In this document: piece by piece, positions 15,648-47,784 of the stretch
Position numbering within the stretch: the first letter of the stretch is position 1
Layout: every line of letters begins with the position of its first letter
From: an uncultured Burkholderiales bacterium
Lineage (GTDB): Bacteria; Actinomycetota; Acidimicrobiia; IMCC26256; JACPCJ01
Length of the DNA stretch: 64,000 nt
Direction of reading: 5' to 3'
NCBI GenBank assembly: GCA_964438505.1
Contig: CAYTKN010000013.1
Span: 7,626 to 71,625, forward strand
Notes under the pieces: model-generated
The model's database searches: none
Seen by the model: the letters and a program-made list of their open reading frames with translations, nothing else
Told to the model about the DNA's origin: nothing
Position numbers and translations under genes: made by a program

Positions 15648-15698
15648 CCCTCGAGGCAGGGGAACGTCTCCCGCCGCACCGACGACCCGCCGGACTCC

Positions 15699-15747: not shown

Positions 15748-15801
15748 CGGAAGCTCGGGTGGCGTGCTGCGGGGGCGCCGGGAGCTCCGCCGTAGCCTGA
15801 C

Positions 15802-20783: not shown

Positions 20784-21020
20784 TCACTCGGTAGCGACGG
20801 GCTCGAGCAGCTCGTCGTCGTCGACGAGGTAGGTGATGCTGCCTCGGAGGTCGTCTCGTACCGGGGCGCGCAGCTCCTCCGGCGATTCGACGGGCACCAC
20901 CTTGGCCACGGGCCGGCCACGCTTGGTGACGATCAGCTCGTCGCCGCTCCGAGCGATGTCGTCGAGGAGCTTGAGGCAGGTGGCCCTGAACCGGCTGGCA
21001 GAGATCTCGCGGGTGTCCAT
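20784..21020 (-). CDS. Phd/YefM-family antitoxin
   Basis: This is the last 78 aa of track ORF 20784..22202: MDTREISASRFRATCLKLLDDIARSGDELIVTKRGRPVAKVVPVE..., a typical Phd/YefM N-terminal fold sequence. Confidence 0.75.
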   Translation of the reverse strand: MDTREISASRFRATCLKLLDDIARSGDELIVTKRGRPVAKVVPVESPEELRAPVRDDLRGSITYLVDDDELLEPVATE

Positions 21021-21068
21021 GCCGCCACGGTAGTCATCTGACCAGCAGCACCGATGCGGCCTGTGGGT

Positions 21069-21089
21069 GTCCCCCGCGTCGCGGGGGAC
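21069..21089 (-). terminator. GC hairpin after the alpha/beta hydrolase gene
   Basis: GTCCCCCGCG-T-CGCGGGGGAC is a 21-nt palindrome, giving an effective stem of about 8 bp. It lies 18 nt downstream of the minus-strand stop at 21107. Confidence 0.35.
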
Positions 21090-21106
21090 GCCCACCGGGG
21101 GCGCGA

Positions 21107-24344: not shown

Positions 24345-24755
24345 TCAGGGCGCGGGCGGGGTCAGCTCCACGGCTGTGTGGGCCCGTACTGCCCGTGCGA
24401 GGCGCTCGTCGGCGGTGAGGAGTGTTCCGCCGGTGAGCTCCGCGAGCGCGACATAGCTGGCGTCATAGGGCGAGAAGTTGGAGCGGAGCTCGAACAGCCG
24501 AGCGAGCAACGACTGGTGGCCGTGTCTGGTCACCGGAAGATCCAGGTAGTCCTGGAGCGCTTCGGTCGCGCGACGACTGGACATGAGGTCGCGGCGTAGC
24601 CCACGTCGCAGGCCGGCGGCGATCTCGACGTCGCAGAGCGCCGGGACGTGGACGTCGACATCCGGGTTCCGGAGCACCTCGCGGGCCGGCGGGGCTGCTT
24701 CGGTGCCGAGGAGGTACTCGAGGACCGCCGACGCGTCGGCAACGACGAGCTTCAG
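24345..24755 (-). CDS. vapC: PIN-domain toxin VapC, apparently with a non-canonical CTG start
   Basis: The frame is open upstream of the track start at GTG 24677. It encodes LKLVVADASAVLEYLLG..., which carries the conserved first Asp. CTG 24755 overlaps the antitoxin stop as CTGA. The C-terminus is LLTADERLARA. Confidence 0.75.
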   Translation of the reverse strand: MKLVVADASAVLEYLLGTEAAPPAREVLRNPDVDVHVPALCDVEIAAGLRRGLRRDLMSSRRATEALQDYLDLPVTRHGHQSLLARLFELRSNFSPYDASYVALAELTGGTLLTADERLARAVRAHTAVELTPPAP

Positions 24756-24991
24756 GACGCGTCCCTTTCTCTGCGCTCCTCGGCGATGAGGTCGGCGGCT
24801 CCGCCTCCGAGCGACACGGGGTCTCTGCCCTCGATGCGGTCGAGCACCTCGGACGCTGGAGGTCGGGCAAGCTCTCGTTCGAGCAGACTCTGGATGTAGT
24901 CGGTGAGGGACTGGCCGCGCGCGTTCGCACGCCTCGTGAGCTCGCGGTGCACCTGGTCCGGGACGTTGCGCACCTGGATCATCTTGGACAT
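24752..24991 (-). CDS. vapB: Ribbon-helix-helix antitoxin (VapB/FitA-like)
   Basis: 79 aa counted from ATG 24991: MSKMIQVRNVPDQVHRELTRRANARGQSLTDYIQSLLEREL, a typical RHH antitoxin sequence. Confidence 0.8.
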   Translation of the reverse strand: MSKMIQVRNVPDQVHRELTRRANARGQSLTDYIQSLLERELARPPASEVLDRIEGRDPVSLGGGAADLIAEERRERDAS

Positions 24992-25003
24992 GCGATCAGC
25001 GTG

Positions 25004-25022
25004 CCACATGTGGATCACATGT
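25004..25022 (-). promoter_or_regulatory. Candidate RHH operator
   Basis: The 10-bp perfect palindrome CCACATGTGG (25004-25013) is followed by a second CACATGT (25016-25022). The site lies 13-31 nt upstream of the antitoxin ATG. Confidence 0.3.
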
Positions 25023-25115: not shown

Positions 25116-25517
25116 TCAGGCCGGCGGTGGTTCGACGCGCTCGACGGTGTCGACCCGGTCGAGGGATCGGTCGAAGGAGGCGACGGTGCCGACGCCGGTG
25201 CTCTCAGCGCACGCCACGAGGTAGGAGTCGGCGAAGTCGATCCGGTCGGTCTCGTACACCTCGACGGCGCGGAGCAACAGCGCGGGGTCGACGCAGGTGA
25301 TCGGCTCGAAGGCAACGATCGAGCGGAGGGCTTCGGCGACGTCTTCGCGGGCCGCTTCGTAGAACGACTCGAGGACGGACACGGTCTCGGCGGCGACGAG
25401 GTCGGTGAGCAACAGGTCGGGTCCGGCGGCGAGGTACGCGGTCGCGCGTGCGGCGGTCTCCGGCGGGTCGCCGGTGAGGTGCCGGACCAGGATGTTCGTG
25501 TCGACGAACGCGCTCAT
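25116..25517 (-). CDS. vapC: PIN-domain toxin VapC
   Basis: MSAFVDTNILVRHLTGD...DFADSYLVACAE...VASFDRSL over 133 aa. ATG 25517 overlaps the antitoxin stop (ATGA). Confidence 0.85.
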   Translation of the reverse strand: MSAFVDTNILVRHLTGDPPETAARATAYLAAGPDLLLTDLVAAETVSVLESFYEAAREDVAEALRSIVAFEPITCVDPALLLRAVEVYETDRIDFADSYLVACAESTGVGTVASFDRSLDRVDTVERVEPPPA

Positions 25518-25762
25518 CGACGCCGCGCGCCCCGCTCGGCTCGACTGCGCCGGAGGACCTCGTCCCACGCGGCGTTGCGCTTCGCTGCCGGCACGCGGAT
25601 CGTTCCGGCGAGGTCGAGGAGGTCGGGGGTGCGCGCGAGCACGGCCCGGTCGCCTTCGACGCGGAAGACGACGGCGTCGCCCTCTTCGATGCCGAGCGCG
25701 TCGCGAACGGCCTTGGGGACGGTCACCTGCCCCTTCGAGGTCATCTTCGCGGCAGCATCCAT
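25514..25762 (-). CDS. AbrB/MazE/SpoVT-family antitoxin
   Basis: MDAAAKMTSKGQVTVPKAVRDALGIEEGDAVVFRVEGDRAVL is a looped-hinge-helix type sequence. AAGGAG lies 7 nt upstream of the start. The inverted repeat TCCTTAC/GTAAGGA (25770-25795) overlaps the RBS. Confidence 0.8.
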   Translation of the reverse strand: MDAAAKMTSKGQVTVPKAVRDALGIEEGDAVVFRVEGDRAVLARTPDLLDLAGTIRVPAAKRNAAWDEVLRRSRAERGARRR

Positions 25763-26155
25763 CACAATCTCCTTACGAATAATGTCAAGTAAGGATACCC
25801 GGCCTCGACCGCGCTCGCAGCCCCTCACAGCACACATGGTGGCCCCGGGGTCCGACAGGAACCCCTCATCACGAACGAGGGGTGGGAGACCCCACCAATC
25901 GACGGGCCACCTGGTTCCACCACACCACAGGACGCCGACTCCACCACCTCACGGGACGCCGACGTGGCGCCGCTACGACGCGGACGTGGTCGACGCGTGC
26001 CTCCGGGTGGTGCCCGAGATGACCGTCTGAGATGCCTCGGGGTCGGACGGCGCCGATGACCCACGAGCCGTCCGGCGGGACAGACGCAGCGAGGGGCCGG
26101 CGTGCCCGATGTGCACGTCGCCGACCACGACGACGGCCGGGCAGACCAACACGTC

Positions 26156-27655
26156 TCAGCGTTCGCGACCCTGCGCGGGCGGGAACCAGATCCTCGTGGG
26201 ACCTCGGGCTCGCTGTGGGATCAGCACCGGCTCGGTGTTCCAGTCCTCGAGGCACGAGTAGCGGATCGGAGTATCACGCCGGTCGGACTGGGCGGGGGCG
26301 GTGACGAAGATGAGCTGCGGGTCGTCCGTGCAGATCCGCTCATTGAGCTGTTCGGACTTCAGGTCGAGCACCTTGCGGTCCAGGTAGTACCGGAGCTCGT
26401 AGGGGAACGGGTCGTCGGTGATGACCTCGGTGTCGGCGTCTCGCGCTTCGATCGCCGCGGCCGTCTCCTTGAAGGCTTCGCGCGGTTCTCGGACGTGCGC
26501 GAGGACGTGGTCCACGAAGCTGGTCGAGACGCTGACGAGCAGCGCGGCGAGCGCGGCGGCGCCGAGCGCCCGCGTCCAACGCGGGCGTGCCAGCGCGACC
26601 CCGACGCGCGCGAGGCCGATGCCGAAGAGGGTGAGGGTGGGCACGAGGACGGGGCTCGTGTACCGGGCGTACACCGGGATCTCCCGCACGGCGAGGACGG
26701 CGAAGAAGCCGACGATCGGCACCGCCAGGAGTGCCAGCAGCCACCGGTCGTTCCTCGCGAGCCACACGGCTCCGTACACGACCACCGCGCCTCCGACGAC
26801 GACGCCGAGCGCGCCCGCGAGGCTCGGGTGCACGAACTGGAGGACGGGGGTGACGAAGCGTTCGAGCGGTCCCGTGACGACGCCGTGTGGCGGGACGACG
26901 GCGCCGCCGCGGCGTTCGGTGACCGAGCCGCTGACGTCGACAAGCTCTCCGAGGAGTGGCCAGTAGAGGCCGATGGAGGCGACGCCTGCTGCGGCCGTGG
27001 CGACCACTGCTCCAAGGCGCGCCCGGTGGTTCAGCAGGAGCACGCCGGTGTGGAGGAGGAAGGGGACGGCCATGACCGGCAGCGCCCAGATCCCGACCGC
27101 GCCGCTCGCTGCGAGCACCGCGACCCACCGCTTCGGTCCCCCGTCGGACAGCCGGGTGGAGGCCACGATCCACAGCGCTGCCGCGAGGAACGCCAGGCCG
27201 TAGCCGCGGGCGAGTCGCGACTGCACGAAGTGCATGGGGGACACGAGGAACACCGCGGCGATGACGACGGCGGTCCACGGCGTCAGGCGCCTCCAGAGCC
27301 ACGTGCCCAGCACCGCGACGGCCGCGATCGCCGGCAGGGTGCTGCCGAGGCGGTACAGCACCTCGGAGCCACCGACGAGTGATCCGGCGGCCCATGTGAG
27401 CACGCTGTATGCCACGTGGTTGTTGATCTTGTAGATGCTCGGGTCGTAGATGCTGCCGAGGCCGGGGTCGACGTAGTTGACGACCGTCCAGAGCTCGTCT
27501 TCCCAGAAGCTCTGGCCGAGGCCGGGAAGGCGGCTGGCGAGGAACGCGATCGCGAGGGCGATCCCGGCGGCGAGGGCGATCCACCACGACGTGGTGCGCG
27601 ACGGCGCCACGAGGCGGGACCGGCCCGAGCTCAGCAGCTTGGCGACGGTCGCCAT
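26156..27655 (-). CDS. GT-C-type membrane glycosyltransferase (ArnT/PMT_2-like)
   Basis: 499 aa counted from ATG 27655. The first loop reads GQSFWEDELWTVVNY (acidic DE motif). About 11 TM helices precede a soluble C-terminal domain. Confidence 0.75.
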   Translation of the reverse strand: MATVAKLLSSGRSRLVAPSRTTSWWIALAAGIALAIAFLASRLPGLGQSFWEDELWTVVNYVDPGLGSIYDPSIYKINNHVAYSVLTWAAGSLVGGSEVLYRLGSTLPAIAAVAVLGTWLWRRLTPWTAVVIAAVFLVSPMHFVQSRLARGYGLAFLAAALWIVASTRLSDGGPKRWVAVLAASGAVGIWALPVMAVPFLLHTGVLLLNHRARLGAVVATAAAGVASIGLYWPLLGELVDVSGSVTERRGGAVVPPHGVVTGPLERFVTPVLQFVHPSLAGALGVVVGGAVVVYGAVWLARNDRWLLALLAVPIVGFFAVLAVREIPVYARYTSPVLVPTLTLFGIGLARVGVALARPRWTRALGAAALAALLVSVSTSFVDHVLAHVREPREAFKETAAAIEARDADTEVITDDPFPYELRYYLDRKVLDLKSEQLNERICTDDPQLIFVTAPAQSDRRDTPIRYSCLEDWNTEPVLIPQRARGPTRIWFPPAQGRER

Positions 27656-27662
27656 GCGGTTC

Positions 27663-28628
27663 TCAGTACCCGTACCGCCGCCGCAGCGGGGCGGTGAGCA
27701 TCGAGAGGGCGAGGTCGCTGCCGCGGGGTCGCGTCCGGCCGTCTCCCTCGGTGTCGGGCGTGTCGGGCGTCTCGGTGTGGTCGGCACCGATGGTGATGCG
27801 ACCCGATCCGGTTCGGCCGGGGTTGCCTCCGACCATGTGGGTGGCGGCCACCTCCACGGTTCGGTCGTCGACGAAGGGTGTCACCGCGTCGCGCTCCGCG
27901 ACCATCTCGAGGACTCGCGCCACCGATCCCCTGGGTCGTACCGAGAGGTCCTCGTAGCGGAGCAGCATCGATCGTTCGTTGGTGAGGCGCCGCCGGGCGA
28001 TCTCGGCGACGGCGTTGCGAGCCGTCCACGACAGGGCAGTGTGCAGGGAGCCGTAGCGCGGCATCGTGTCCTGGTCCTCGCGGTCGGTCCACGCCTTGGG
28101 CCGCGCCCACGAGCGGGCGACGGCGCGGGGGTCGCGCACGAGTTGGACGGCGTAGGGCGCGACTTCGGGGACGAGGCCGAGCGCGGCGGGGTGGAGGGCG
28201 AGCTTGGACGAGTCGACGACGACGTTCGCTCCCGCCTCCAGAGCGATCGCCCGGTAGAGGCGCCCGGCGATGTCGGTCCACTCGTCGAGGGCGCGCCATC
28301 GTCGTGGTGGCGTCGGTGGCTGGCGGAGCAGCCGGGGTGCGAGGTGCCACCGGATCACTCGCTGCTGGAGCGCGTGGAGTCGCCGGCCTTCGGCGGCGGT
28401 CGGTTCGATCCCGGCGTCGGCGAGGACGTTCCGCCAGAACGGGCACGTGGGGACGGGTTCGCCGCAGGCGCAGCGGTACCCGCGGGCGAGGCCCCAGTCC
28501 CACAGGTAGACGAGCTCGCCGACGCTGGCGAACCCGTCGGTGGCACCGAGGACGTTGTCGAGGAGGGTGCTGCCGCTGCGCCCCTTGCCGACGATGAACA
28601 GGGTCTTGACGGGGTGCTCCACGCTCAT
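27663..28628 (-). CDS. Sulfotransferase-family protein (PAPS-type P-loop)
   Basis: 321 aa counted from ATG 28628. FIVGKGRSGSTLL is a 5'-PSB-like loop. RDPRAVARSW and a CxCGExVxxCPFW motif are present. Confidence 0.8.
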   Translation of the reverse strand: MSVEHPVKTLFIVGKGRSGSTLLDNVLGATDGFASVGELVYLWDWGLARGYRCACGEPVPTCPFWRNVLADAGIEPTAAEGRRLHALQQRVIRWHLAPRLLRQPPTPPRRWRALDEWTDIAGRLYRAIALEAGANVVVDSSKLALHPAALGLVPEVAPYAVQLVRDPRAVARSWARPKAWTDREDQDTMPRYGSLHTALSWTARNAVAEIARRRLTNERSMLLRYEDLSVRPRGSVARVLEMVAERDAVTPFVDDRTVEVAATHMVGGNPGRTGSGRITIGADHTETPDTPDTEGDGRTRPRGSDLALSMLTAPLRRRYGY

Positions 28629-29596
28629 GTGCTCGGGGGATACCTCTCGGTGGTCGTTCGCAGCGGGTAGCCGTAGCGTGCGAGGAGCGGCGCTGCGAGG
28701 GCGGTGGAGACGAGCGCGTCGCGGCGTGGGAGCGAGGCGCGCCATTCGGTGTCCTCGCGGATGGTCACCGAGCGGCGGCCGACGCGGTCGGGGTTGCCGC
28801 CGACGGTGTGGTTCTCGGCGATCTCGAAGTCGGGGCCGGTGGGTGCGAGGTCGGGGTCGAGGTCGACGAGCTCGAGGATCCGGCGCATGGCGCCGGTCGG
28901 GTCGGCGGCGAAGTCCTCGTAGCGCAGCAGCAGGGAGGGGGCGGTGCTGGTCCTGCGGAGGAGCTCGACGACGAGGTTGCGGACCGTCCAGCTCATCGTG
29001 CTGTACGCGGCGCCGTAGGTGGGCATCATGGCCCCGGAGTCCCGGTCGGTGAAGGCCTTCTCCCGCTTCCAGGAGTGGACGACGGCGCGGGGGTCGCGCA
29101 CGAGCTGGAGGAGGCGGGGTCGGATCCCGGGCACGTAGCCGAGCATGGCGGGTTCGAGGGGGATCTTCGAGGCGTCGACGATCACGTCGCTGCCGGTGAC
29201 GTCGCGCACGGCCCGGTAGAGCTGGGCCTTCAGCTCCGACCACTCGCGCAGCGCGCGCCATCGCCGTCGGGTGAGGTCGCGGCTGGCGAGGTGGAGGCGG
29301 GGGGCGTGGTGCCAGCGGATGACGCGGCGTTGGAGCGCGAGGACCTCCTCGTGGCCCCGCGCCGGGGCGCCGGGGAGCCGGGCGAGCACCTCCGACCAGA
29401 TCGGGCAGCGGGCGACGTGCTCGCCGCAGCCACATCGGACGCCCTGCTCGAACCCCCAGTCCCAGAGGTGGACGAGCTCGCCGGCGGTGAACACCCCGTC
29501 GATCTGGCCGAGCAGGTTGTCGAGGATGGTGCTGCCGCTTCGTCCCTTGCCGAGGATGAACAGCACCGTGACGTCGCTGGTGGTGGTGTCGCTCAC
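28625..29596 (-). CDS. Sulfotransferase-family protein, paralogue of 27663..28628
   Basis: 323 aa counted from GTG 29596. FILGKGRSGSTIL, RDPRAVVHSW and CGCGEHVARCPIW are present. Both ends overlap neighbours by 4 nt: its GTG start with the upstream stop (GTGA) and its stop with the downstream ATG (ATGA). Confidence 0.8.
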   Translation of the reverse strand: MSDTTTSDVTVLFILGKGRSGSTILDNLLGQIDGVFTAGELVHLWDWGFEQGVRCGCGEHVARCPIWSEVLARLPGAPARGHEEVLALQRRVIRWHHAPRLHLASRDLTRRRWRALREWSELKAQLYRAVRDVTGSDVIVDASKIPLEPAMLGYVPGIRPRLLQLVRDPRAVVHSWKREKAFTDRDSGAMMPTYGAAYSTMSWTVRNLVVELLRRTSTAPSLLLRYEDFAADPTGAMRRILELVDLDPDLAPTGPDFEIAENHTVGGNPDRVGRRSVTIREDTEWRASLPRRDALVSTALAAPLLARYGYPLRTTTERYPPST

Positions 29597-30591
29597 GGGT
29601 CGGTGGGACCTCCGTCGGTCGTGGAGACGCTGAGGTCGTCCCGGTCGATGTCGGGGGCCGCTTCGTCGGCGACGGCTCCGACACTCCGGGAGGGGCCGCG
29701 CACGGCGAGGCCGAGCGCGACGCTGCCGAGCACGGCGAAGGAGGCGAGGCGGTGGACGACGGTGGCCATGAGTCCGACGGCGACGGGGAGGCCGACGAGG
29801 GGGCTGATGCCCGCGGCGATGGCTTCTCGGAGGCCGAGGCCTCCGGGGAAGATGCCGACGGCGGCCGCCGCGGCGCCGGCGACGGTGAGGGCGACGGCCT
29901 GGGTGGCGTCGACGTCGAAGCCGAGGCCTTCGATGATGAGGAAGAGCCGGAGCCCGTTGACGACCACGAAGGCCACCTCGATGAGGGCGACGCGCACCGC
30001 GAGCGCCGGCGCCCGTTCGGCGCCGACCCGTCGGCTCATCCACGCGTAGGCGATCACGAGGCCCACGAGCGCGACCGCGGTCCAGGCGGCGCCGAGCGCG
30101 GGCGATCCGAGCGCGAGTTGGGCGACGCCGGCGATGAGCACGGTGATGGCCACCCACCCGGCTCCGATGAGGGCGGTGGCGGAGACGGCTTCGCGGTAGC
30201 CGGGGCCGAGCTGGCGGAGGGCCTGGACGCGCACGAGCGCGGCGCCGGGGAGGGGCAGGAGGTTGGCGGCGTTGGCGATGACGGTGACCCGCAGCGCGCG
30301 CGAGGCGGGGACGCGGTGGCCGACCATCAGCGCGGAGGTGTGGAACTCCATGCCGTTGAGGAAGACGGTGGGTGGGACCCCGCCGACGGAGCCGAGCAGC
30401 AGCGGCCACCACTCGAGGCCGCCTTCCACGTCGGGGAAGCGTTGGAAGGCGAAGTATCCGGCGCCGAGGAACACGAGAGCCGAGAGCACGAGCAGCGCGC
30501 GCTCGACTCGCGGCGAGCGTTGCTCGGCGCGGCGGCGGAGCAGGCCGCCGACGGCTGCGCTCCATCGGGCGAGCTGGGGCCGTGAGGCCAC
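29593..30591 (-). CDS. Polytopic membrane protein, flippase-like (LPG-synthase-TM / UPF0104-like)
   Basis: Track ORF of 332 aa with about 8 TM helices. The motif GIFPGGLGLREA is typical of that family as I recall it. Confidence 0.55.
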   Translation of the reverse strand: MASRPQLARWSAAVGGLLRRRAEQRSPRVERALLVLSALVFLGAGYFAFQRFPDVEGGLEWWPLLLGSVGGVPPTVFLNGMEFHTSALMVGHRVPASRALRVTVIANAANLLPLPGAALVRVQALRQLGPGYREAVSATALIGAGWVAITVLIAGVAQLALGSPALGAAWTAVALVGLVIAYAWMSRRVGAERAPALAVRVALIEVAFVVVNGLRLFLIIEGLGFDVDATQAVALTVAGAAAAAVGIFPGGLGLREAIAAGISPLVGLPVAVGLMATVVHRLASFAVLGSVALGLAVRGPSRSVGAVADEAAPDIDRDDLSVSTTDGGPTDP

Positions 30592-30595
30592 GCCG

Positions 30596-31705
30596 TCACT
30601 CCCCTTCGACGAGTCCGAGCACGGCGACGAGCTCGTCGCTGTAGCGCTCGGGTGACGAGCGTGCGGCCGTCTCGGCTTGGAAGCGGGCGGCGATCTCGAG
30701 GCGGTGGTCGCTGTCCGCGCGCAGCTCGAGGATGCGGTCCACGAACTGGTCGGCGGCTTCGGGGTCGCAGAGGTAGCCGGTGGCGCCGTCGGTCATGGCG
30801 TCCTCGATGCCTTCGAGGCGGGAGGCGACGACGGCGGTGCCGGCGACGGCGGCTTCGATGGCGGCGAGGCCGAACCCTTCCATGTCGTCGCGCACGGCGA
30901 TGTTGGGCATGACGAAGCAGTCGGCACCGAGGAGCACGGTGTCGCGGAGGTGGTCGTCGACGTTGCCGAGCAGGTGGACCCGGTGGTCGAGGCCGCCGCT
31001 GTCGACGGCGGCGACGATGGCGTCGGCGTCGTCGCCGGTGCCGGCGACGACGAGGTGCACGTCGTCGGGGAGCTTCGGGAGCACGTCGGTGACGAACCAG
31101 CGCACGCCCTTGCGTCGCACGAGCCGGCCGACGCTGGCGACGACGAAGGTGTCGTCGTCGAGGTCGAGGAGCCGGCGCAGCTCGCGGGCGCGTGCAGCGC
31201 GCTCACCGGTGGGTGGGGGTGCGAGGTCGGTGGCGGGGTTGACGACGTCGGTGCACCCCGCGGGGATCCCCGACGTGTGGGCGACCTGCGCGGTGGCGCT
31301 GCTGTTGGCCACGACGCGGTCAACGCGGCGCAGCACGCGGCTCACGGCGGCGCGGTAGCCGGGGAACGGGAAGGTGAGGTCGAGGCCGTGCACCATCACG
31401 ACGACGCGCACGCCGGGGAGGAGCCGCAGCGGCGACATGACGGCCCCGGTGATGGCGTCGCCGCAGAGGACGATCCGGGAGCGGCGGGTGAGCACGAGCG
31501 CGGCGACGCGCACGAGGGCGACGGGCAGGAACCACACGAGGTGGCGTTGCGAGCGGCCGAGGGCGACGAGCCGTGAGGGCCCGTGGCGGCGGAGCGCTTC
31601 GTGGACCTGCCGGGCGAGGGTCTGCATGCCGCCGACGGTGGGCGGGAACTTGCGGGTGACGAACACGACCTGCTCGGTGGTCGCTGCGTGAGGCGAGGGA
31701 GTCAT
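30596..31705 (-). CDS. GT4-family glycosyltransferase
   Basis: VVFVTRKFPPTVGGMQT is followed by a GT-B C-terminal half with EGFGLAAIEAAVAGTAVV (E-x7-E region). The alternative start GTG 31738 is the track start. Confidence 0.8.
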   Translation of the reverse strand: MTPSPHAATTEQVVFVTRKFPPTVGGMQTLARQVHEALRRHGPSRLVALGRSQRHLVWFLPVALVRVAALVLTRRSRIVLCGDAITGAVMSPLRLLPGVRVVVMVHGLDLTFPFPGYRAAVSRVLRRVDRVVANSSATAQVAHTSGIPAGCTDVVNPATDLAPPPTGERAARARELRRLLDLDDDTFVVASVGRLVRRKGVRWFVTDVLPKLPDDVHLVVAGTGDDADAIVAAVDSGGLDHRVHLLGNVDDHLRDTVLLGADCFVMPNIAVRDDMEGFGLAAIEAAVAGTAVVASRLEGIEDAMTDGATGYLCDPEAADQFVDRILELRADSDHRLEIAARFQAETAARSSPERYSDELVAVLGLVEGE

Positions 31706-31747
31706 GGGGTCGGAGGGGATCGGAGCGCGGGACGGCACGTCCCGAGG

Positions 31748-32641
31748 TCACATCGACGCGGGGTCGACCTGGTCGGACGGTCGGGTGACGCGCACGACCA
31801 GGTCGGCGAGCAGGCCGATCGCGAAGACCTGGAAGGCGGCGAAGAGGATGAGCAGGGTGTTGGTGGCGACGCGGAACTCCTTGTCGAAGGCGTCGAATCC
31901 GAGCTTGCCGAGGCCGATGGCGGTGAGGAGGAAGCCGATGGGCAGGAAGACGCGCAACGGGTTGTAGGAGAGGATCATCCGGATGACCTGGGTGACGTAC
32001 TTCTTGGTGTCGGTCCAGGGGTGGAACTTCGACTCGCCGGCTCGGGCCTTGTAGTCGATCGGCGTGTACTTGATGGAGTAGCCGCCGGAGAGGAACGCCA
32101 TCGTCATGGTGGTGACGCACGAGAACCCGGGCGGCAGGTGGTGGAGGTACTGGGCGGCGACGGCGCGGCGGAAGGCCCGGAACCCGGAGTTGAGGTCGGG
32201 GATCTCGGTCTGGGTGAGGTACTGGGCGAGCTTGCGGATCGTCCACTTGGCGGGCACCCGGAAGAACTTCTTGGTGCCCTGCTCGGAGCTGCGCGCCCCG
32301 ACGACCTGGTCGTGGCCTTCGAGCTCCTTGACGAGCCGGGGGATCTCGTCGTTCGGGTAGGTCATGTCGACGTCGGTCCAGACGACCACCTCGCCGCGCG
32401 CCGCGTGGGTGCCGACGCGGCGCGCGGAGCCCGATCCGCGGTTCCGGCTGAACCGGAAGAGGCGGATGCCGTCGATCTCGCGCAGCTCGTCGGCGGAGCC
32501 GTCGGTGCTGCCGTCGTCGACGACGACGATCTCGAAGCTGTAGGGGGAGGCGTCGAGCGCCGCGCGGATGCGGTCGATCTCCTCGCGGAGGTGTCCGGCC
32601 TCGTTGTAGACGGGTAGGACGACGGAGACGTCGACTCTCAT
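31748..32641 (-). CDS. GT2 polyprenol-phosphate glycosyltransferase (DPM1/GtrB-like) with C-terminal TM helices
   Basis: VSVVLPVYNEAGHL, VVVDDGSTDGS and VWTDVDMTY (DxD) are present, followed by two C-terminal TM helices. Confidence 0.85.
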   Translation of the reverse strand: MRVDVSVVLPVYNEAGHLREEIDRIRAALDASPYSFEIVVVDDGSTDGSADELREIDGIRLFRFSRNRGSGSARRVGTHAARGEVVVWTDVDMTYPNDEIPRLVKELEGHDQVVGARSSEQGTKKFFRVPAKWTIRKLAQYLTQTEIPDLNSGFRAFRRAVAAQYLHHLPPGFSCVTTMTMAFLSGGYSIKYTPIDYKARAGESKFHPWTDTKKYVTQVIRMILSYNPLRVFLPIGFLLTAIGLGKLGFDAFDKEFRVATNTLLILFAAFQVFAIGLLADLVVRVTRPSDQVDPASM

Positions 32642-32726
32642 CGGGAGCTCCTCGTGGACGACACCGTGGGGGCCACCTCCGTGGCTCGGTCACCGAGCCG
32701 CGCGGCGCCACCGCACATCTCCAAGC

Positions 32727-34283
32727 CTACGCACGCTCCGGCGTGGTGAGTCGCTTCAAGGTCTCGCCACGGACGAGGCCGTAGTGGCCCTCGCGGGCGA
32801 CGAGGTGGTCGGTGATCTCCGGATCCACGAAGCCGGGTAGGCGGTCGAGGCGGACGAGGACGAGGTGCTCGTCCCCCACGTCCGGGACTCGTTCCGGATC
32901 CGCCGTCCTCGCCGGGCGGTCCCAGTACCAGGACAGCCACCGCGGTGTCGAGATCCCCCCGGTGAACCAGGCCACGCCTTGCGAGGCCGGTGGGTCGTGT
33001 GCCTCGACGAGCGAGCCGGCGTCGGCCGGGTCGGTGTAGTAGCGGGCCTGTGTGTCGCTCGTCGTGATGCCGACGAATCCGACGCCGGCGATCGCGCCGA
33101 CACCGGCGATGGCCGCGACGGCCGGCAGGCGGGGGGCGTGGGTTCGGAGCAGGTCGAGGAGCGCGGCCGTGCCGACGGCGGCGGGCGCGAGGAGCCAGAA
33201 GTTCCAGTAGTCGTGGATGAAGGCGCCGTTGGGGAGTCCCACGCCCCAGCCCACGGTCACGGCGGTGAGGACGAGCACGGCGATCCGGGTCCGCCGGTGC
33301 CACAGCCCGGCGAGGATCGCGGGGCCGAGCAGCACGAGGTACCAGGACGGGAGGAGGTCGCGCGCGAAGCGGAGTTGGCGCCGCACGAACTCCTCGGTCG
33401 TGAAGCCGCCTCCGGTGGTGCGGAACTCCGCTTGGTTGACCATCGATCCGAGCCCGGAGATGCCGACCACCCACGCGACGCTCAGGAGGAAGCCGAGCAG
33501 CATCCCGGCGCCGACGAGGAGCGTCGGTCGGTCGAAGCGCCTGGCGGCGAAGAGCCAGAGCCCGAGACCGGCCGCGGCGAAGGCGCCCTGCCAGGACCAC
33601 GCGGCGGTGAGCGCGCCGGTCAGCGCCGTGCCCCACACGAGCCAGCGCGGCGGGTCGGGGTGTTCGCGGAGGTAGGCGATCGCGGCGACGAGGAGCAGCA
33701 CCGGTGTGAAGCCCCGCAGGACTCGGGCGTACACCCAGAAGAGGTCGGTGGCGATCATCAGCGCGAGCGCCACCAGGATCGGGGCCCACCGGAGCTTCAG
33801 GCTCCGCATGGCCATCGCGGCGAAGGGGATGGTCGCGAGGCCCGAGAGGTACGGGAAGAGCCGCATCTGCTCCTCGCCTTGGCCGACGACTCCGGTGACC
33901 GCGACGTACGCGAAGTTCGGCAGTGGCGGGTGGTGGGCGTAGTTGCCCATGTAGGGGCCGGTGTCGGCCACCCACGACGACCCGAGGAGGCCGAGCTCCC
34001 AGAAGTTGCGGACCCTGAGCGCCTGGGCGCCGAGCAGGGTGCCGTCGCGGCTGTCACCGAAGGGCAACCAGAACGTCGGCCACCACGTCGCGGCGACCAC
34101 CGCGACCATGAGCGCGACCACGATCCAGGGAAGCCAGGTGCCGGCGGTGCCGCCCCACGGGCGGTCGAGCGGCCACCGGCGCTGCGGGCCCGCCGAGTCG
34201 GCGTGCCGCCGCTCGTCCGAGCCGGTGGAGCCGGTGGGGTCGGGGTCTGCTGGGTGCTCGTGCGTTGCCGAGGGCATCGTCAC
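32727..34283 (-). CDS. GT-C-type membrane glycosyltransferase
   Basis: Track ORF of 518 aa. The first-loop region reads WLPFGDSRDGTLLG...YAHHPPLPNFAY. It has more than 10 TM helices and a soluble tail. An alternative start is ATG 34277. Confidence 0.7.
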   Translation of the reverse strand: MTMPSATHEHPADPDPTGSTGSDERRHADSAGPQRRWPLDRPWGGTAGTWLPWIVVALMVAVVAATWWPTFWLPFGDSRDGTLLGAQALRVRNFWELGLLGSSWVADTGPYMGNYAHHPPLPNFAYVAVTGVVGQGEEQMRLFPYLSGLATIPFAAMAMRSLKLRWAPILVALALMIATDLFWVYARVLRGFTPVLLLVAAIAYLREHPDPPRWLVWGTALTGALTAAWSWQGAFAAAGLGLWLFAARRFDRPTLLVGAGMLLGFLLSVAWVVGISGLGSMVNQAEFRTTGGGFTTEEFVRRQLRFARDLLPSWYLVLLGPAILAGLWHRRTRIAVLVLTAVTVGWGVGLPNGAFIHDYWNFWLLAPAAVGTAALLDLLRTHAPRLPAVAAIAGVGAIAGVGFVGITTSDTQARYYTDPADAGSLVEAHDPPASQGVAWFTGGISTPRWLSWYWDRPARTADPERVPDVGDEHLVLVRLDRLPGFVDPEITDHLVAREGHYGLVRGETLKRLTTPERA

Positions 34284-35213
34284 CTACGACCCGCGACGCA
34301 GGAGGCGCAGGCATCGGCGGGCCACGGCCCGCGGGAGCTTGACCGCCGCGTCGGCGACGCTTCGGCGTGGTGCCGACACGTCGGCCAGCTCGGCTTCGAG
34401 GCGCTCGATGCGCTTCCTCGCGTCGTGGAGCGCTCGTTCGTCCTGGCCGATCCGCTGGGCGCTCCCGGGTGGGAGGTGGAGTCCTCGGCGGTCCAGGTCT
34501 CGCAGGACCGTCTGTCGCGCCAGCGCCCAGCTCTCGGGGTCGACGGCGTCGACGGCGGCCTCTCCGGAGCGCCACCGGTGGTAGACGCCGACCACCTCGC
34601 CGGTGTCGTGGACACCCGCCCGTGTGGCTGCGGCGAGGAGGAACGCCCAGTCCTCGAGGACGGGGACGTCCTCACGGAACCGCAGTCCTTCATCGACGAG
34701 CGATCGCGGGACGGCGTAGGTGAAGAGCGGTGACTGGTTGAGGCCGAGGTGCTCGACGAGGTCGAACCGGGGCGAGTAGGGATGCTCGCGCGCTCCGATG
34801 CGCCGGTGGCCGCCGTCGGGCGTGCGCTCCACCCATTCGACGGCGGCGAGGCCGCGCACGACGGCGCCCGGCGCTGCTCGGGCGCCGTCGGCGAAGGTCG
34901 AGAGCCAGTGCGGGAACGCGACGTCGTCGTCGTCGAGGAAGCACACGTAGTCGGCGTCGAGGCGTTGGAGGGCGGCGTTGAGGGGACGAGCGCGCGAGCC
35001 GGGCTCGACGGTGAACACGTCGAGGCGCGACCGGGTCGGGTCGTCGAGCTCGCGGACGAGTCGGCACACACCTTCGACGGCGGTCTCGTCGTCGGTGTGG
35101 ACGGCGAGCCGTACGGCAGCGGGCGCGTGGGCCTGGGAAGCCACGCTGTCGAGCGCCTCACGGAGGTTCGGGGGCCTGAGGCCCTGGGTCCGCATGACGA
35201 CTTCGAGTTCCAC
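34284..35213 (-). CDS. GT2-like glycosyltransferase
   Basis: VVMRTQGLRPPNLREALDSVASQ and YVCFLDDDDVAFPHW (DxD region) are present. The C-terminus looks coiled-coil-like. Confidence 0.6.
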   Translation of the reverse strand: MELEVVMRTQGLRPPNLREALDSVASQAHAPAAVRLAVHTDDETAVEGVCRLVRELDDPTRSRLDVFTVEPGSRARPLNAALQRLDADYVCFLDDDDVAFPHWLSTFADGARAAPGAVVRGLAAVEWVERTPDGGHRRIGAREHPYSPRFDLVEHLGLNQSPLFTYAVPRSLVDEGLRFREDVPVLEDWAFLLAAATRAGVHDTGEVVGVYHRWRSGEAAVDAVDPESWALARQTVLRDLDRRGLHLPPGSAQRIGQDERALHDARKRIERLEAELADVSAPRRSVADAAVKLPRAVARRCLRLLRRGS

Positions 35214-35260
35214 GCCCTGCTCTCCTCCGCCTCGGCGAGAAGGTAGCAGCCGCGTAACGT

Positions 35261-37279
35261 GTGGCTCGCGCGATGTCGGGACGGGACGGACGGATGGATG
35301 ACGGGGGCGCGCGTGAGCCGGCGTTGTGCCCTGGAGACGACGGCTGGCTCGAGGCGCTGGCGTCCGCTGATGCGTCCCGGCCGGCCGCGCTCGTCCTCCG
35401 GGGCCCGGCCCGTGCCACCTTCGACGAGGTCCGCGGCGCCGTCGGGGACCTGCTCGTTCGGGGCTTCACGGTCGCCGGGGCCGAGCCGGGAGGCGTCACG
35501 TTCCGGCCGGGCCGCCACGAGTTGCTCTACCTCGGACCGTGGGTCAAGCGGGGAGGCTCCGACCGGGGAACGCTCGACTGGCTGCGCACGATCGACCGGG
35601 AGCGGTTCGGCCGCGCGCTGGTGACGACCCAGCCGAGCGACAACCCGTGGTTCGGGGAGGCGGAGCGGCTGGCGGATGCCGCCTGGCACCTCCCCGACCG
35701 GGTGCGGGGCCGTGAGATGCCCGGGTTCGTCGCGAGGGTGGTGCGCGACCGGGGCGTCGCGGCCGTGCACGTCATGAACTCGAAGCTGGGTTTCGACCTG
35801 CTGCCCGATCTCGAGCGCGCCTTCCCGCACGTCGGGGTGGTGGTGCAGTTGCACAACCTCGAGGTCGACGGGCGGGGCCGACCGTGGGGCTACGTCCCCT
35901 ATGTGATCTCGCGCTTCGACCGTCACGTCGACGCCTACTCGGTGATCAGCCGTGACGTCCTCGAGGCGATGGTGGAACGGGGTGTCCCGCGCGAGAAGCT
36001 CCACCTCGTCCCGTTGGGGGTGGACGTCGACGACGAGTTCCGCCCTCGGGCGCCTGGCGCGGGCGGGCGCCGTGAGGGTACCGGCGAGACGTTCCGGGTC
36101 CTGTTCCCGGCGCGCCTCACCGAGCAGAAGGATCCGTTGTTGCTCGTGGAGATCGCCGCGGGCCTGGCGGCACGCGGGTCGGGAGCCGTGGTCGACGTGG
36201 TGGGGGAGGGAGCGTTGGGAGCGGAGTTGGAGCGAGCCGTCTCGCGCCGTGGCCTGGGTGATCGCTTCGTGTTCCACGGAGCCCACGACGACATGGCGGC
36301 CTGGTACGAGCGCTCGGACGTCACCGTGCTGACGAGCCGCTACGAGGGGCTCCCGATGACGGTCCAGGAGAGCCTGGCCTGCGAGGTCCCGGTGGTGGCG
36401 GCGGCGGTCGGCGCGATCCCGGAGCTGGTCGATGCGTCCTGCGGGGTGCTGGTGGAGCCCCGCGACGACGTGGATGCCTACGTGGAGGCGTTGGTGGCGC
36501 TCGAGCGGGATCCCGAGCGTCGGCGCCGCTTGGGGATCGCCGGTCGCGAGCGGTTGCTGCGCGCGGGTTTCACGACCGGGGCGATGGCCCGCGCGCACGA
36601 GGACCTGTACGTGGAGGTCGTCGCCGCGCGTGTGGCTCGGCTGCTCGGCGGCGAGCCGGAGGGACGGCGTGACGGCGAGAGCCGGGCGGTCGGGTTCGAG
36701 GGGTGGACGCCCCCGGGCACGGTCCCGTGCGGGGTGCGCACGTCGAGCGGCGCTGCCGACCTGGTGGTCTCCGAGGAGGTCGTCAAGCCGCTCGCACGGC
36801 TCTACCGGGAGCCGTTCGAGGACACCGCTCCGCTGGTGCGTGTCGACGCCGGCCGCTTCCGTGTGGGTGGTGGGGATCGGCTCGGGCACCCGGACGCGCC
36901 GGGGCGCCCGGACGGGGAGGTCGTCGGTCACGTGCTCCGGCACCACCTGCCGGGTCTCGTCGACCTCTCCCGCGCGGTGAGCGATGCGCTGCGGGAGGCC
37001 GGCTGCGACGCCGACGCGATCGTGGTGGAGGGTCTCGAGGGTTCGGTGGAGGGTCTCGAGGGTTCGGTGGAGGCGGGTGGCACCGACGCCGGTGCCGACA
37101 CGCGGGTGTGGGTGGAGCCGGTCGAGCCTCCCTCCGGCCGGCCGGGAAGCTCTCGTCCGGGCGCGCCGCGCGCGGGGTCCGCCGGGAGCCGGGCGCTGGC
37201 GCGGCTCCGTCCGCGTCGGCTCCGCCGTCTCGTCACCCGCCTGATCGGCCGAGGAGGGAGCCGGGCTCGGGGAGCGTGA
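35261..37279 (+). CDS. GT4-family glycosyltransferase with N- and C-terminal extensions
   Basis: Track ORF of 672 aa. LTSRYEGLPMTVQESLACEVPVV is the GT4 E-x7-E region. About 230 aa of extra C-terminal sequence follow. Confidence 0.75.
   Translation: MARAMSGRDGRMDDGGAREPALCPGDDGWLEALASADASRPAALVLRGPARATFDEVRGAVGDLLVRGFTVAGAEPGGVTFRPGRHELLYLGPWVKRGGSDRGTLDWLRTIDRERFGRALVTTQPSDNPWFGEAERLADAAWHLPDRVRGREMPGFVARVVRDRGVAAVHVMNSKLGFDLLPDLERAFPHVGVVVQLHNLEVDGRGRPWGYVPYVISRFDRHVDAYSVISRDVLEAMVERGVPREKLHLVPLGVDVDDEFRPRAPGAGGRREGTGETFRVLFPARLTEQKDPLLLVEIAAGLAARGSGAVVDVVGEGALGAELERAVSRRGLGDRFVFHGAHDDMAAWYERSDVTVLTSRYEGLPMTVQESLACEVPVVAAAVGAIPELVDASCGVLVEPRDDVDAYVEALVALERDPERRRRLGIAGRERLLRAGFTTGAMARAHEDLYVEVVAARVARLLGGEPEGRRDGESRAVGFEGWTPPGTVPCGVRTSSGAADLVVSEEVVKPLARLYREPFEDTAPLVRVDAGRFRVGGGDRLGHPDAPGRPDGEVVGHVLRHHLPGLVDLSRAVSDALREAGCDADAIVVEGLEGSVEGLEGSVEAGGTDAGADTRVWVEPVEPPSGRPGSSRPGAPRAGSAGSRALARLRPRRLRRLVTRLIGRGGSRARGA
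37025..37066 (+). repeat. 21-bp perfect tandem duplication (VEGLEGS x2) inside the GT4 gene
   Basis: GTGGAGGGTCTCGAGGGTTCG occurs twice; coordinates are anchored on the ORF frame. Confidence 0.85.
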
Positions 37280-39641: not shown

Positions 39642-39650
39642 GGCACGCGG

Positions 39651-40469
39651 CTACCCGGTGGCCCGCTCGGCCCGGCCGGCCTCGTCGTCCTGGTCGTGCT
39701 CGCGGGGCCGGTCCTGCTCGTCTGCCTGCTCGGCCTGGTCGTGGACGGCGTCGCGGTATTGGTCGACGACCTCGGCGGAGGGGCCGATCGCGCGCACGCG
39801 TCCGTGGTCGAGCCACAACGCTCGGTCGCAGAAGTCGACGACCTGCTCGAGCGAGTGGGTGACGAACACGATGGTGCCGGAGCGCTCGAGCAGCCGGGTC
39901 ATGGAGGCCATGCTCTTGTCGCGGAACTCCTCGTCGCCGACGGCGAGGACCTCGTCGACGAGGAGGATGTCGGGGTCGATGTGGATGCTGATCGAGAAGG
40001 CGAGGCGGGCGAACATCCCCGACGAGTACGTCTTGATGGGTCGGTGGATGGCGTCCTCGAGGCCCGCGTACTCGACGATGGCGTCGACGCGCTCGTCGAT
40101 CTGGCGTTTGGTGAGGCCGGCGGCGAGGCCTCCGAGGTAGGTGTTCCGGTGCCCAGAGAGCTCGGGGTTGAAGCCGACGCCGAGTTGGAGGAGCGTCGAG
40201 ACGTGGCCACGGATCTCGATGACGCCGGCGTCGGGTTGGAGCGTCCCGGCGATCACCCGGAGGAGCGTGCTCTTGCCGGCGCCGTTCGGCCCGATGACGC
40301 CGAACGCCTCCCCGCGGTGGATCTCGAAGTCGACGTGGTCGAGCGCGACGACCTGTTCGCGTTCCCGGTGGCGGAGCCGCGAGAGGGAGCGGCGGAGGGT
40401 GGGGCTCCGGTCGAGGTACGGACGGAACCACACCCCGAGGTCGCGGGCGGCGATCGACGGCTCGGTCAC
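39651..40469 (-). CDS. Polysaccharide/teichoic-acid-type ABC exporter ATP-binding protein (Wzt/TagH-like)
   Basis: 272 aa counted from GTG 40469. GPNGAGKSTLL, YSSGMFARLAFS and ILLVDEVLAVGD are present. The C-terminus is a short acidic tail with no carbohydrate-binding domain. Confidence 0.85.
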   Translation of the reverse strand: MTEPSIAARDLGVWFRPYLDRSPTLRRSLSRLRHREREQVVALDHVDFEIHRGEAFGVIGPNGAGKSTLLRVIAGTLQPDAGVIEIRGHVSTLLQLGVGFNPELSGHRNTYLGGLAAGLTKRQIDERVDAIVEYAGLEDAIHRPIKTYSSGMFARLAFSISIHIDPDILLVDEVLAVGDEEFRDKSMASMTRLLERSGTIVFVTHSLEQVVDFCDRALWLDHGRVRAIGPSAEVVDQYRDAVHDQAEQADEQDRPREHDQDDEAGRAERATG

Positions 40470-41293: not shown

Positions 41294-41306
41294 CGGCGCG
41301 CCGAGC

Positions 41307-47775: not shown

Positions 47776-47784
47776 GCGAGTGGC

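Follow-up and report, generated by a model that had tools for sequence, protein, structure and literature searches.

An operon joining lipid-carrier glycosylation genes to two PAPS-type sulfotransferase genes in an uncultured Acidimicrobiia bacterium: a candidate pathway for a sulfated envelope glycan

Organization of the locus

A 64,000-nucleotide (nt) stretch of DNA from an uncultured bacterium (deposited as Burkholderiales; GTDB lineage Acidimicrobiia; assembly GCA_964438505.1, contig CAYTKN010000013.1, positions 7,626 to 71,625), hereafter called the window, contains an operon of eight co-directional genes on the minus strand, running from 35213 down to 26156 and designated here g1 to g8 (Table 1). 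Their products comprise glycosyltransferases, a flippase-domain membrane protein and two sulfotransferases of the type that uses 3′-phosphoadenosine 5′-phosphosulfate (PAPS). Best sequence matches fell in Euzebyales, Nitriliruptorales, Acidimicrobiia and Micromonosporaceae. We describe these genes and their recurrence in other genomes, and propose tentatively that the operon serves to make an envelope glycan that is sulfated and lipid-linked.

At ~72% G+C, the raw list of open reading frames (ORFs) was crowded with spurious frames. Genes were therefore called with a finder based on the G+C content of third codon positions (GC3), which picks one frame per segment, and by inspection of start codons. 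GC3 was 0.87-0.97 across all of g1-g8. The successive junctions from g1 to g8 measured 0, 85, 9, 4, -4, -4 and 7 nt, negative values being overlaps. When the same DNA was called independently in another assembly (Logan SRR9010616), g5-g8 came out identical and g4 slightly shorter, with 369 amino acids (aa); the g4 start lies at 31738 or ~31705. The longest ORF for g8 (start 27787) would run into g7, and g8 probably begins at the ATG at 27655. An earlier note made from the letters of the sequence (the original prediction) had listed eight genes with this order, spacing and set of identities, and the GC3 plot, the start codons and searches against Pfam, PDB and protein folds bore it out. A scan of 25700-35500, including the 85-nt gap, revealed no interpretable promoter, terminator or sigma-70 consensus, such a scan being uninformative at 72% G+C.

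Table 1. Features of the window, with the operon genes first (aa, amino acids; TM, transmembrane)
Feature	Coordinates	Strand	Description
g1	34284-35213	-	309 aa; soluble GT-A/GT2-like glycosyltransferase, DDDD motif
g2	32727-34283	-	518 aa; predicted GT-C fold membrane glycosyltransferase, small C-terminal extracytoplasmic domain (predicted)
Intergenic gap	32642-32726		85 nt; sole sizeable gap inside the operon
g3	31748-32641	-	297 aa; predicted polyprenyl-phosphate GT2, two C-terminal TM helices
g4	30596-31738	-	380 aa; cytoplasmic GT4 (GT-B)
g5	29593-30591	-	332 aa; MprF-flippase-domain (PplT/UPF0104) membrane protein
g6	28625-29596	-	323 aa; PAPS-type sulfotransferase, 4-nt overlap with both neighbours
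g7	27663-28628	-	321 aa; second PAPS-type sulfotransferase, paralogue of g6
g8	26156-27655	-	499 aa; second membrane protein with predicted GT-C fold
Divergent intergenic region	35214-35323		110 nt between g1 and the plus-strand GT4 gene; presumed promoter region
GT4 gene	35324-37279	+	Divergent from g1 (Pfam)
Upstream unit	to 44336	-	802-aa glycosyltransferase-like protein, TagH/Wzt-type ABC ATPase, Wzm-type permease, 1009-aa double-GT2 protein
Pseudaminic acid pathway	45713-51016	both	PseB, PseC, PseI, PseG-PseH fusion (434 aa), cytidylyltransferase
Low-G+C block	51000-61500	-	Aldo-keto reductase, short-chain dehydrogenase/reductase, Capsule_synth-like protein, MsbA-type ABC exporter, GT4, three proteins without family match
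WecA-like gene	61537-62694		Glycos_transf_4; with a UDP-glucose dehydrogenase gene at the end of the low-G+C block
MazE/PIN genes	25116-25744		Toxin-antitoxin
FitA-like/PIN genes	24345-25018		Toxin-antitoxin
Phd gene	20784-21095		Antitoxin
HipA gene	14400-15647		Kinase toxin (region 14215-15647)
ASST gene	12272-13999	+	Arylsulfate sulfotransferase
Membrane protein gene	8975-10618		Weak PMT_2 match; divergent to the DprE-like trio
UbiA-type gene	7594-8457	-	Prenyl/phosphoribosyl transferase
DprE1-like gene	6197-7591	-	FAD oxidase
DprE2-like gene	5433-6200	-	Short-chain dehydrogenase

Sulfotransferase motifs

The g6 and g7 products scored 51.7 and 51.8 bits against Pfam Sulfotransfer_3 (PF13469; cut-off 27) and are 49% identical to each other over 316 residues. 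Both have the 5′-phosphosulfate-binding loop GKGRSGST near the N-terminus. A 24-sequence family alignment showed R19 and G21 of this loop to be invariant, and S20 and T23 to be conserved in at least 90% of the sequences; the 3′-phosphate-binding element, consisting of V166-R-D-P-R-A171 and S175, was invariant. The loop aligns with SSPRSGST of the CurM and OLS sulfotransferases, and VRDPRA...S with their LVRHPYxVIES. When the PDB was searched with the family profile, only PAPS sulfotransferases were retrieved, among them the OLS (1e-12) and CurM (2e-10) enzymes. The original prediction had called two P-loop sulfotransferases and named their PAPS-binding residues as the point to be checked by alignment; with both proteins above the family cut-off and both PAPS motifs intact, this call stands. 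Neither protein has a predicted transmembrane (TM) segment, and both are therefore placed in the cytoplasm.

E40 is invariant in the family and aligns with the Glu of the CurM motif PPELHL, whose Glu and His we take to serve as catalytic base near the acceptor site. The aligned His is kept in g6, replaced by Tyr in g7 and variable across the family. This loss of the CurM histidine, together with weak matches of the family profile to tyrosylprotein (TPST) and natural-product (Teg, StaL) sulfotransferases, could mean that the proteins are inactive or act on a small molecule, a peptide or a protein tyrosine, in which case the operon would encode a glycosylation system of the ordinary, unsulfated kind. 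We regard this as very improbable, because neither the PAPS motifs nor E40 vary within the family, coding constraint is clear in the sulfotransferase genes, whose translation is coupled to that of glycan genes, and a glycan or lipid context was found at every locus examined.

Two further features set the g6/g7 subfamily apart from the CurM and OLS enzymes, which lack both: an invariant C-x-C-G-x6-C cluster (g6 residues 55, 57 and 64) and an invariant His, H263, in a THTVGGNP motif. The codons of these four residues span ~28808-29434, and the residues may form a Cys3His metal site. Homology of g6 and g7 to the haloarchaeal proteins Agl30 and Agl31 was considered and ruled out, since the latter have a sulfatase fold (PMC11980604).

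Cytoplasmic glycosyltransferases and the flippase candidate

The g3 product matched Pfam Glycos_transf_2 (E 5e-31), and its top PDB sequence matches were ArnC, GtrB (sll0501) and the Pyrococcus DPMS. Two TM segments begin at about residues 229 and 257. These matches and the two C-terminal helices agree with the original prediction of a polyprenyl-phosphate GT2, and g3 is, judged by its sequence, a polyprenyl-phosphate glycosyltransferase. The best NCBIfam match was the haloarchaeal AglJ, aligned over the full length (E 2e-28) with 99.8 bits against a cut-off of 325; equivalog scores for AglJ, ArnC, PgfS and PpgS were all far under their NCBIfam cut-offs, and g3 was not assigned as an orthologue of any of them.

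The g4 product matched Pfam Glycos_transf_1 and Glyco_trans_1_4 (E ~1e-29). Its best PDB matches were PimB′ and PimA (E 1e-12), enzymes that act on membrane glycolipids. It also showed a weak match to the N-acetylglucosaminyl-phosphatidylglycerol (GlcNAc-PG) synthase family of GpgS (NF053787); because the score was 46 bits against a cut-off of 480, g4 is not a GpgS orthologue. The g1 product gave a weak match to Pfam Glycos_transf_2 (28.9 bits, cut-off 23.3) and a weak AglG-like match in NCBIfam (E 9e-4). No TM segment was predicted in g1, and none of the 80 related genome loci surveyed below contained a homologue of it.

The g5 product matched Pfam LPG_synthase_TM (PF03706) with 45 bits (cut-off 33.4) over profile positions 3-298 of 302. 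Its score against TIGR00374, 32.7 bits, was under the cut-off of 43.2, and a search of the PDB gave no sequence match. It has about 7-8 TM helices (a crude hydropathy count gave ~7). Lipid translocation by g5 is predicted by its likeness to MprF's flippase domain; its counterparts GpgF and HexF are themselves without direct translocation assays (PMC12713373, PMC10128005). No GtrA or Wzx family match was found among the window proteins scanned, and this 332-aa PF03706 protein is the sole flippase candidate of the operon. The original prediction had seen in the operon the classical three-part module for extracytoplasmic glycosyl transfer. Its polyprenyl-phosphate GT2 and its GT-C folds (see below) stand; the flippase, however, is of the MprF/PplT type and not of the GtrA or Wzx type.

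Fold predictions for two membrane proteins

Neither g2 nor g8 gave a match in Pfam or a sequence match in the PDB, and NCBIfam returned nothing except a sub-threshold Agl23 match for g8. The AlphaFold2 model of g2 had a predicted local distance difference test score (pLDDT) of 90.3. When this model was searched with Foldseek, all of the 28 best PDB matches were GT-C proteins, with ArnT at the top (E 2e-6) and ALG12, STT3, PglB, AftB and Pmt4 among the others. For g8, 26 of the 26 best PDB matches were likewise GT-C proteins (ArnT, E 2e-7). The models thus identify g2 and g8 as GT-C folds, as had originally been called for both proteins. The two families are remote homologues (hhalign probability 97.5%, E 8e-12).

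A YAHHPPL motif is invariant in the g2 family. In predicted loop 1 of g2, D77 is present, as in 28 of the 34 family members, and D80 occupies a position where the family usually has Glu. The family motif in this loop is G-D-N-H-E-G-R, from which the window copy differs by H79R (His in 32/34) and R82T (Arg in 30/34); these two substitutions suggest an altered specificity or a lowered activity of this copy. The g8 family has an invariant D53-E54 in predicted loop 1 (7/7) and an invariant Cys pair, C442/C468, in the C-terminal domain. A profile search at E<1e-30 recovered 285 cluster representatives of the g8 family, for which there is no Pfam model; the family is not rare, merely unannotated.

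Two assignments were tried and rejected. Agl23 (TIGR03663) is a hexose-phosphate-dolichol flippase-associated protein, and g8 does not qualify as its orthologue, having 18.5 bits against a cut-off of 126.25 (E 8e-4, residues 91-221 only). The C-terminal segments SWYWDRP of g2 and RYYLDRK of g8 were considered as a motif like the WWDYG of oligosaccharyltransferases; this was dropped, as the Asp is not conserved in the g8 family.

Conservation of the gene neighbourhood

Relatives of the sulfotransferases were present in more than 559 species genomes, including those of cultured Actinoplanes, Micromonospora, Rubrobacter and Myxococcus. The best 80 sulfotransferase loci were scanned with profiles built from the window proteins. 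A g5-type gene adjoined the sulfotransferase gene in 15 of these 80 loci; both gene orders occurred, and the reading frames often overlapped. All 15 flippase-adjacent sulfotransferases fell among the 27 closest relatives, and a neighbour-joining tree placed the flippase-linked sulfotransferases in one clade that includes g6 and g7. All 15 loci belonged to uncultured Actinomycetota (Euzebyales, Nitriliruptorales, Acidimicrobiia, Microthrixaceae and Iamiaceae). Orthologues of g3 (E<1e-100) were found in six of them and GT4 genes in nine, three of the latter being strong g4 orthologues (E 1e-84 to 1e-101); g4 orthologues with E values of 1e-75 to 1e-101 adjoin the sulfotransferase gene in loci L002/L082, L008 and L019. 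In the Euzebyales locus L082, a GT4, a sulfotransferase and a flippase gene form an overlapping three-gene operon. Tandem or multiple sulfotransferase copies also occur elsewhere (P0002/P0016, L007, L008 and L028).

A second survey was anchored on the flippase gene and comprised 80 metagenome loci (alignment A4), 19 of which had at least 3 kb on either side. Near the flippase gene, six of the 19 contained a GT4, a polyprenyl-phosphate GT2 and a sulfotransferase, three contained the GT4 and the GT2 with no sulfotransferase, one contained a GT4 only, and nine contained none of the three. Every sulfotransferase-bearing locus among these 19 (6/6) thus held both glycosyltransferases. The polyprenyl-phosphate GT2 gene abuts the flippase gene even where there is no sulfotransferase (L115, L147 and L148). 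This recurrence of the gene set supports a functional link among its members, as read from gene content and position. The co-occurrence that the original prediction proposed to look for was found in part: the sulfotransferase, flippase, GT4 and polyprenyl-phosphate GT2 genes recur together, whereas homologues of g2 and g8 are largely missing.

The sole g8-like ORF near a flippase gene, accompanied by two GT4 genes, was at metagenome locus L108. Other GT-C-like proteins are encoded near the module at L001 (hhalign 96.7% to the g8 family), L003 (PMT_2, E 6e-5) and L009 (PMT_2, E 0.007). A protein of ~730 aa with 12-13 TM helices always flanks the GT2/GT4/sulfotransferase/flippase module of the Microthrixaceae type (alignment A5; L009 at 14149-16614, and L015, L018, L097, L103, L104, L109, L113 and L120). 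It showed no hhalign link to g2 or g8 and only a sub-threshold match to PMT_2.

In the cultured genus Solwaraspora (L084, CP114908.1, 9126-14493), a g3 orthologue (55% identity) overlaps a g2 orthologue (42%) by 4 nt, alongside a divergent unit of methyltransferase, GT4 and flippase-domain genes. Because a methyltransferase stands here in the place of the sulfotransferase, the modifying enzyme appears to occupy an exchangeable slot for modification ahead of flipping. The basal module would be a polyprenyl-phosphate GT2, a GT4, a flippase domain and a GT-C-like protein, as judged by the sequences compared.

Proposed pathway

The analyses above directly support the identities assigned to the genes, the folds, the PAPS motifs, the structure of the operon and the conserved co-occurrence of its genes. 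Building on these, we tentatively read the operon as the pathway to a lipid-linked envelope glycan bearing sulfate; this reading is plausible and falls somewhat short of probable. We infer the carrier lipid, the order of the steps, the acceptor and the existence of a sulfated product as follows. At the cytoplasmic face, g3 would load a hexose onto polyprenyl phosphate, and g4, perhaps with g1, would lengthen the lipid-linked sugar. The g6 and g7 enzymes would add sulfate from PAPS at two different positions, and g5 would move the sulfated lipid-linked glycan to the outer leaflet. There g2 and g8 would transfer the glycan to extracytoplasmic acceptors, most likely the polymer of the neighbouring cluster, with its ATP-binding cassette (ABC) exporter and pseudaminic acid genes, or alternatively envelope proteins.

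PAPS is found solely in the cytoplasm, and sulfation would therefore precede flipping; the need to add sulfate ahead of flipping would in turn explain why the sulfotransferase genes lie beside the flippase gene. That the sulfotransferase gene is so closely and repeatedly linked to genes for a flippase-domain protein and two membrane-associated glycosyltransferases argues for a lipid-linked substrate. A single flippase suffices in this pathway, which would also account for the position of the polyprenyl-phosphate GT2 gene next to the flippase gene.

Several points weigh against this pathway. The sulfated product is a prediction from gene content, and the 64-kb window encodes no PAPS-synthesis proteins (cysC, cysDN) among its products. 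To our knowledge, extension of a polyprenyl-monophosphate sugar by a GT4 enzyme is known in archaea and not in bacteria. The g8 model is of moderate confidence (pLDDT 69), and the window copy of g2 departs from its family at the two near-invariant loop-1 positions (H79R, R82T). Homologues of g2 and g8 were missing from all 80 sulfotransferase genome loci, so the GT-C step is not conserved at the sequence level. No polyprenyl-phosphate GT2 gene was found within 10 kb of the GT4-sulfotransferase-flippase trio of L082. Finally, the characterized stand-alone partners of g5-type flippases make glycerolipid glycolipids and not polyprenyl sugars (PMC12713373, PMC10128005).

A glycolipid product is a strong alternative, although we judge it less likely than not. 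Here g4, g6/g7 and g5 would form a synthase-modifier-flippase unit of the GpgSDF/HexSDF/MprF type making a sulfated glycolipid or lipoglycan: the GT4 would glycosylate a glycerolipid (diacylglycerol, phosphatidylglycerol or phosphatidylinositol), the sulfotransferases would sulfate the head group, and g5 would flip the product. The polyprenyl-phosphate-sugar made by g3 would then be the donor for GT-C extension outside, as in the route from phosphatidylinositol mannosides to lipomannan. The gene make-up of such an operon is matched, in that g4, g5 and g6/g7 are contiguous and translationally coupled, and g5 shows homology to MprF's lipid flippase domain. GpgSDF of P. aeruginosa (PMC12713373) and HexSDF of C. 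difficile (PMC10128005), which with MprF are the parallel to g4, g6/g7 and g5, pair a cytoplasmic glycosyltransferase (a GT4 in GpgS) with a head-group modifier and a UPF0104 flippase, and fusions of GT-B with PplT domains occur in Actinobacteria (bioRxiv 10.1101/2022.03.11.483950). The best PDB matches of g4, PimB′ and PimA, and its weak GlcNAc-PG synthase match point in the same direction; however, GT4 proteins in general show such a likeness to PimA/PimB′ (E 1e-12), and the distance of g4 from GpgS (46 bits vs 480) speaks against orthology. A polyprenyl-phosphate GT2, often abutting the flippase gene, accompanies the sulfotransferase at each of the six well-flanked metagenome loci that have one, and this argues against a glycolipid, whereas the L082 operon, with no such GT2 nearby, argues for it. 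A glycolipid route would also require the glycolipid and the polyprenyl-phosphate donor to be flipped in two separate events, against a single flippase-like gene.

The parallel with GpgSDF and HexSDF has limits of its own. Their modifier is a deacetylase, and that of MprF an aminoacyl transferase, whereas g6 and g7 are sulfotransferases; GpgSDF and HexSDF, unlike the g1-g8 operon, have no polyprenyl-phosphate GT2 or GT-C protein. The modifier is predicted to be cytoplasmic in GpgSDF and proposed to be extracellular in HexSDF (PMC12713373, PMC10128005).

The operon is one unit of a very large envelope-glycan region. Pfam, together with NCBIfam TagH/Wzt and Wzm matches, defined the context at 35324-44336 (Table 1), and the ABC-exported polymer of this neighbouring cluster is, from its adjacency, the obvious candidate acceptor; Wzt or Wzm homologues lie near the module also in L010, L019, L027 and L083. 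The adjacency to a Wzm/Wzt-type exporter and large polymerizing glycosyltransferases would also fit two independent systems on one transcript. The sulfotransferases would then sulfate the neighbouring polymer before ABC export, as a decoration or a chain-end cap, and the GT2, flippase and GT-C proteins would separately add unsulfated side-chain sugars outside the membrane. Homologues of the ABC ATPase lie near the sulfotransferase gene at several loci. At L083 a related sulfotransferase gene adjoins a Wzt gene with the cap-binding domain Wzt_C; the Wzt-like ATPase of the window, by contrast, has no Wzt_C domain by Pfam. At about 65 of the 80 loci, members of the wider sulfotransferase family lie among other sugar genes, with no flippase gene beside them. 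However, g6 and g7 belong to the flippase-adjacent subclade, in which the frames often overlap or nearly do so in either gene order, and the sulfotransferase co-occurs with the GT4 and the polyprenyl-phosphate GT2 also at loci without an ABC exporter within range. We consider two separate systems unlikely.

The L083 locus, from an Acidimicrobiia metagenome-assembled genome, contains at 6154-12472 a flippase-domain gene, the sulfotransferase gene, a second and different sulfotransferase gene whose product matches Sulfotransfer_1 and Sulfotransfer_3 alike, a GT4 gene and the Wzt gene. The Wzt_C domain next to a sulfotransferase raises the possibility that sulfate is a chain-end signal in some relatives.

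Returning to the lipid-linked glycan, a broader claim would be that uncultured Acidimicrobiia, Nitriliruptorales, Euzebyales and related Actinomycetota share a conserved pathway, comprising a polyprenyl-phosphate GT2, a GT4, at least one PAPS sulfotransferase, an MprF-type flippase and a GT-C protein, in which a sulfated oligosaccharide is built on polyprenyl monophosphate and then brought to the cell exterior. We put this forward as a conjecture that is rather less likely than not to hold. If true, it would be a bacterial counterpart of the sulfated dolichyl-phosphate glycosylation of haloarchaea, would give these bacteria anionic envelope polymers or glycoproteins based on sulfate rather than phosphate, and would assign a polyprenyl-glycan flippase role to the PplT/UPF0104 family.

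Relation to characterized systems

We know of no characterized member of the Gtr-type systems that sulfates its lipid-linked donor. In these systems (GtrA/GtrB/GtrV; CsbB/GtcA/YfhO; GacI/J/K/L; PpgS/Rv3632/Rv3779) a polyprenyl-phosphate sugar is made by a membrane-anchored GT2, moved by a flippase and passed by a GT-C enzyme to an envelope polymer on the outer side; the g1-g8 operon encodes the same three kinds of protein (background summarized in part in PMC13390465). As in side-chain addition to the group A carbohydrate (GAC) and serotype c carbohydrate (SCC), the operon lies beside a polymer cluster with an ABC exporter. It departs from these systems in that its flippase is of the MprF/PplT type and not GtrA or Wzx, in that a GT4, a further GT2 and two PAPS sulfotransferases come between the making of the donor and its flipping, and in having two GT-C proteins.

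The closest match in logic is found in N-glycosylation by the archaeon Halobacterium salinarum, where a dolichyl-phosphate tetrasaccharide is sulfated by two enzymes, then flipped and transferred (PMC11980604, PMC12624080). That system (Agl28/25/26/27, Agl30/Agl31, flippase-related Agl29 and AglB) has in common with our proposal sulfation at the cytoplasmic face and transfer by a GT-C enzyme, and the best family match of g3 is the haloarchaeal AglJ. In contrast, Agl30 and Agl31 have a sulfatase/alkaline-phosphatase fold (PMC11980604), whereas g6 and g7 are PAPS P-loop sulfotransferases, and the transferase AglB is an oligosaccharyltransferase of the STT3 type; g2 and g8, by contrast, resemble ArnT most and gave no match to the STT3 family. 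A second archaeal precedent is a conserved gene group comprising UPF0104 (arCOG00899), an AglD-like GT2 and a PMT/STT3-like protein, for which a role in glycosylation was predicted in 2015; it has the protein types of g5, g3 and g2/g8, without a sulfotransferase or a GT4 (PMC5898192).

PAPS-type sulfotransferases are also encoded within surface-glycan clusters of other bacteria, namely the cyanobacterial synechan (xss) exopolysaccharide cluster and the putative wps-1 cluster of Actinoplanes missouriensis, the latter again with two sulfotransferases; the sulfated product of wps-1 is itself unverified (PMC13390465). Both clusters are Wzx/Wzy-dependent, operate on undecaprenyl diphosphate and have no polyprenyl-phosphate GT2, PplT flippase or GT-C protein (PMC13390465). 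A 2026 study treats sulfated polysaccharide in actinomycetes as unverified (PMC13390465).

Sulfated surface glycans are considered rare in bacteria, and the gene set described here is compact and recurring. It sets PAPS sulfotransferases between the glycosylation of a lipid carrier and a flippase of the MprF type, and so predicts lipid-linked intermediates that bear sulfate. In the actinobacterium M. tuberculosis, a sulfated envelope glycolipid is made by the sulfolipid-1 pathway (Stf0, PapA1/2, Pks2 and MmpL8). That pathway likewise uses a cytoplasmic PAPS sulfotransferase followed by a dedicated membrane export step; it differs in its free trehalose substrate, in export by MmpL, in having no lipid-carrier GT2 or GT-C protein, and in that Stf0 belongs to another sulfotransferase family.

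In the literature searched, no characterized bacterial locus was found that combines a PAPS sulfotransferase, a polyprenyl-phosphate GT2, a flippase and a GT-C protein. This agrees with the original remark that the combination was not recognizable from characterized loci, the partial precedents being archaeal. Each protein superfamily is already known, and so is the scheme in which glycosylation of a lipid carrier precedes extracytoplasmic transfer. The literature searched contains no description of three things: the presence of PAPS sulfotransferases in such a module, the replacement of GtrA or Wzx by an MprF-type flippase, and the conservation of the set across uncultured Actinomycetota. The set offers a concrete substrate class for the largely uncharacterized PplT/UPF0104 family. 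Sulfate could replace phosphate as the anionic charge of the envelope, which would be relevant to phosphate-poor or saline habitats and to lineages such as Microthrixaceae.

Other features of the window

Beyond the ABC exporter cluster lies a set of pseudaminic acid genes. NCBIfam scores were 468.7 bits for PseB (cut-off 407.75), 447 for PseI (340) and 416.8 for PseC, just under its cut-off of 423.5; from these matches the pathway looks complete. The block that follows has a G+C content of 60-63%, compared with ~72% elsewhere, and looks horizontally acquired. It ends at the WecA-like and UDP-glucose dehydrogenase genes (Table 1).

On the other side of the operon, downstream of g8, the window contains several toxin-antitoxin genes and a HipA kinase toxin gene, and the G+C content is slightly lower at 22-26 kb. 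Such a density of toxin-antitoxin genes with a dip in G+C beside the operon is typical of an island border. Farther downstream, the trio of DprE2-like, DprE1-like and UbiA-type genes resembles the decaprenyl-phospho-arabinose pathway and, if correctly assigned from its sequence matches, would give the window a second system for sugars on a lipid carrier. A gene ~12 kb from the operon codes for an arylsulfate sulfotransferase (ASST; Pfam E 3e-46), a type of enzyme that does not depend on PAPS and is unrelated to g6 and g7.

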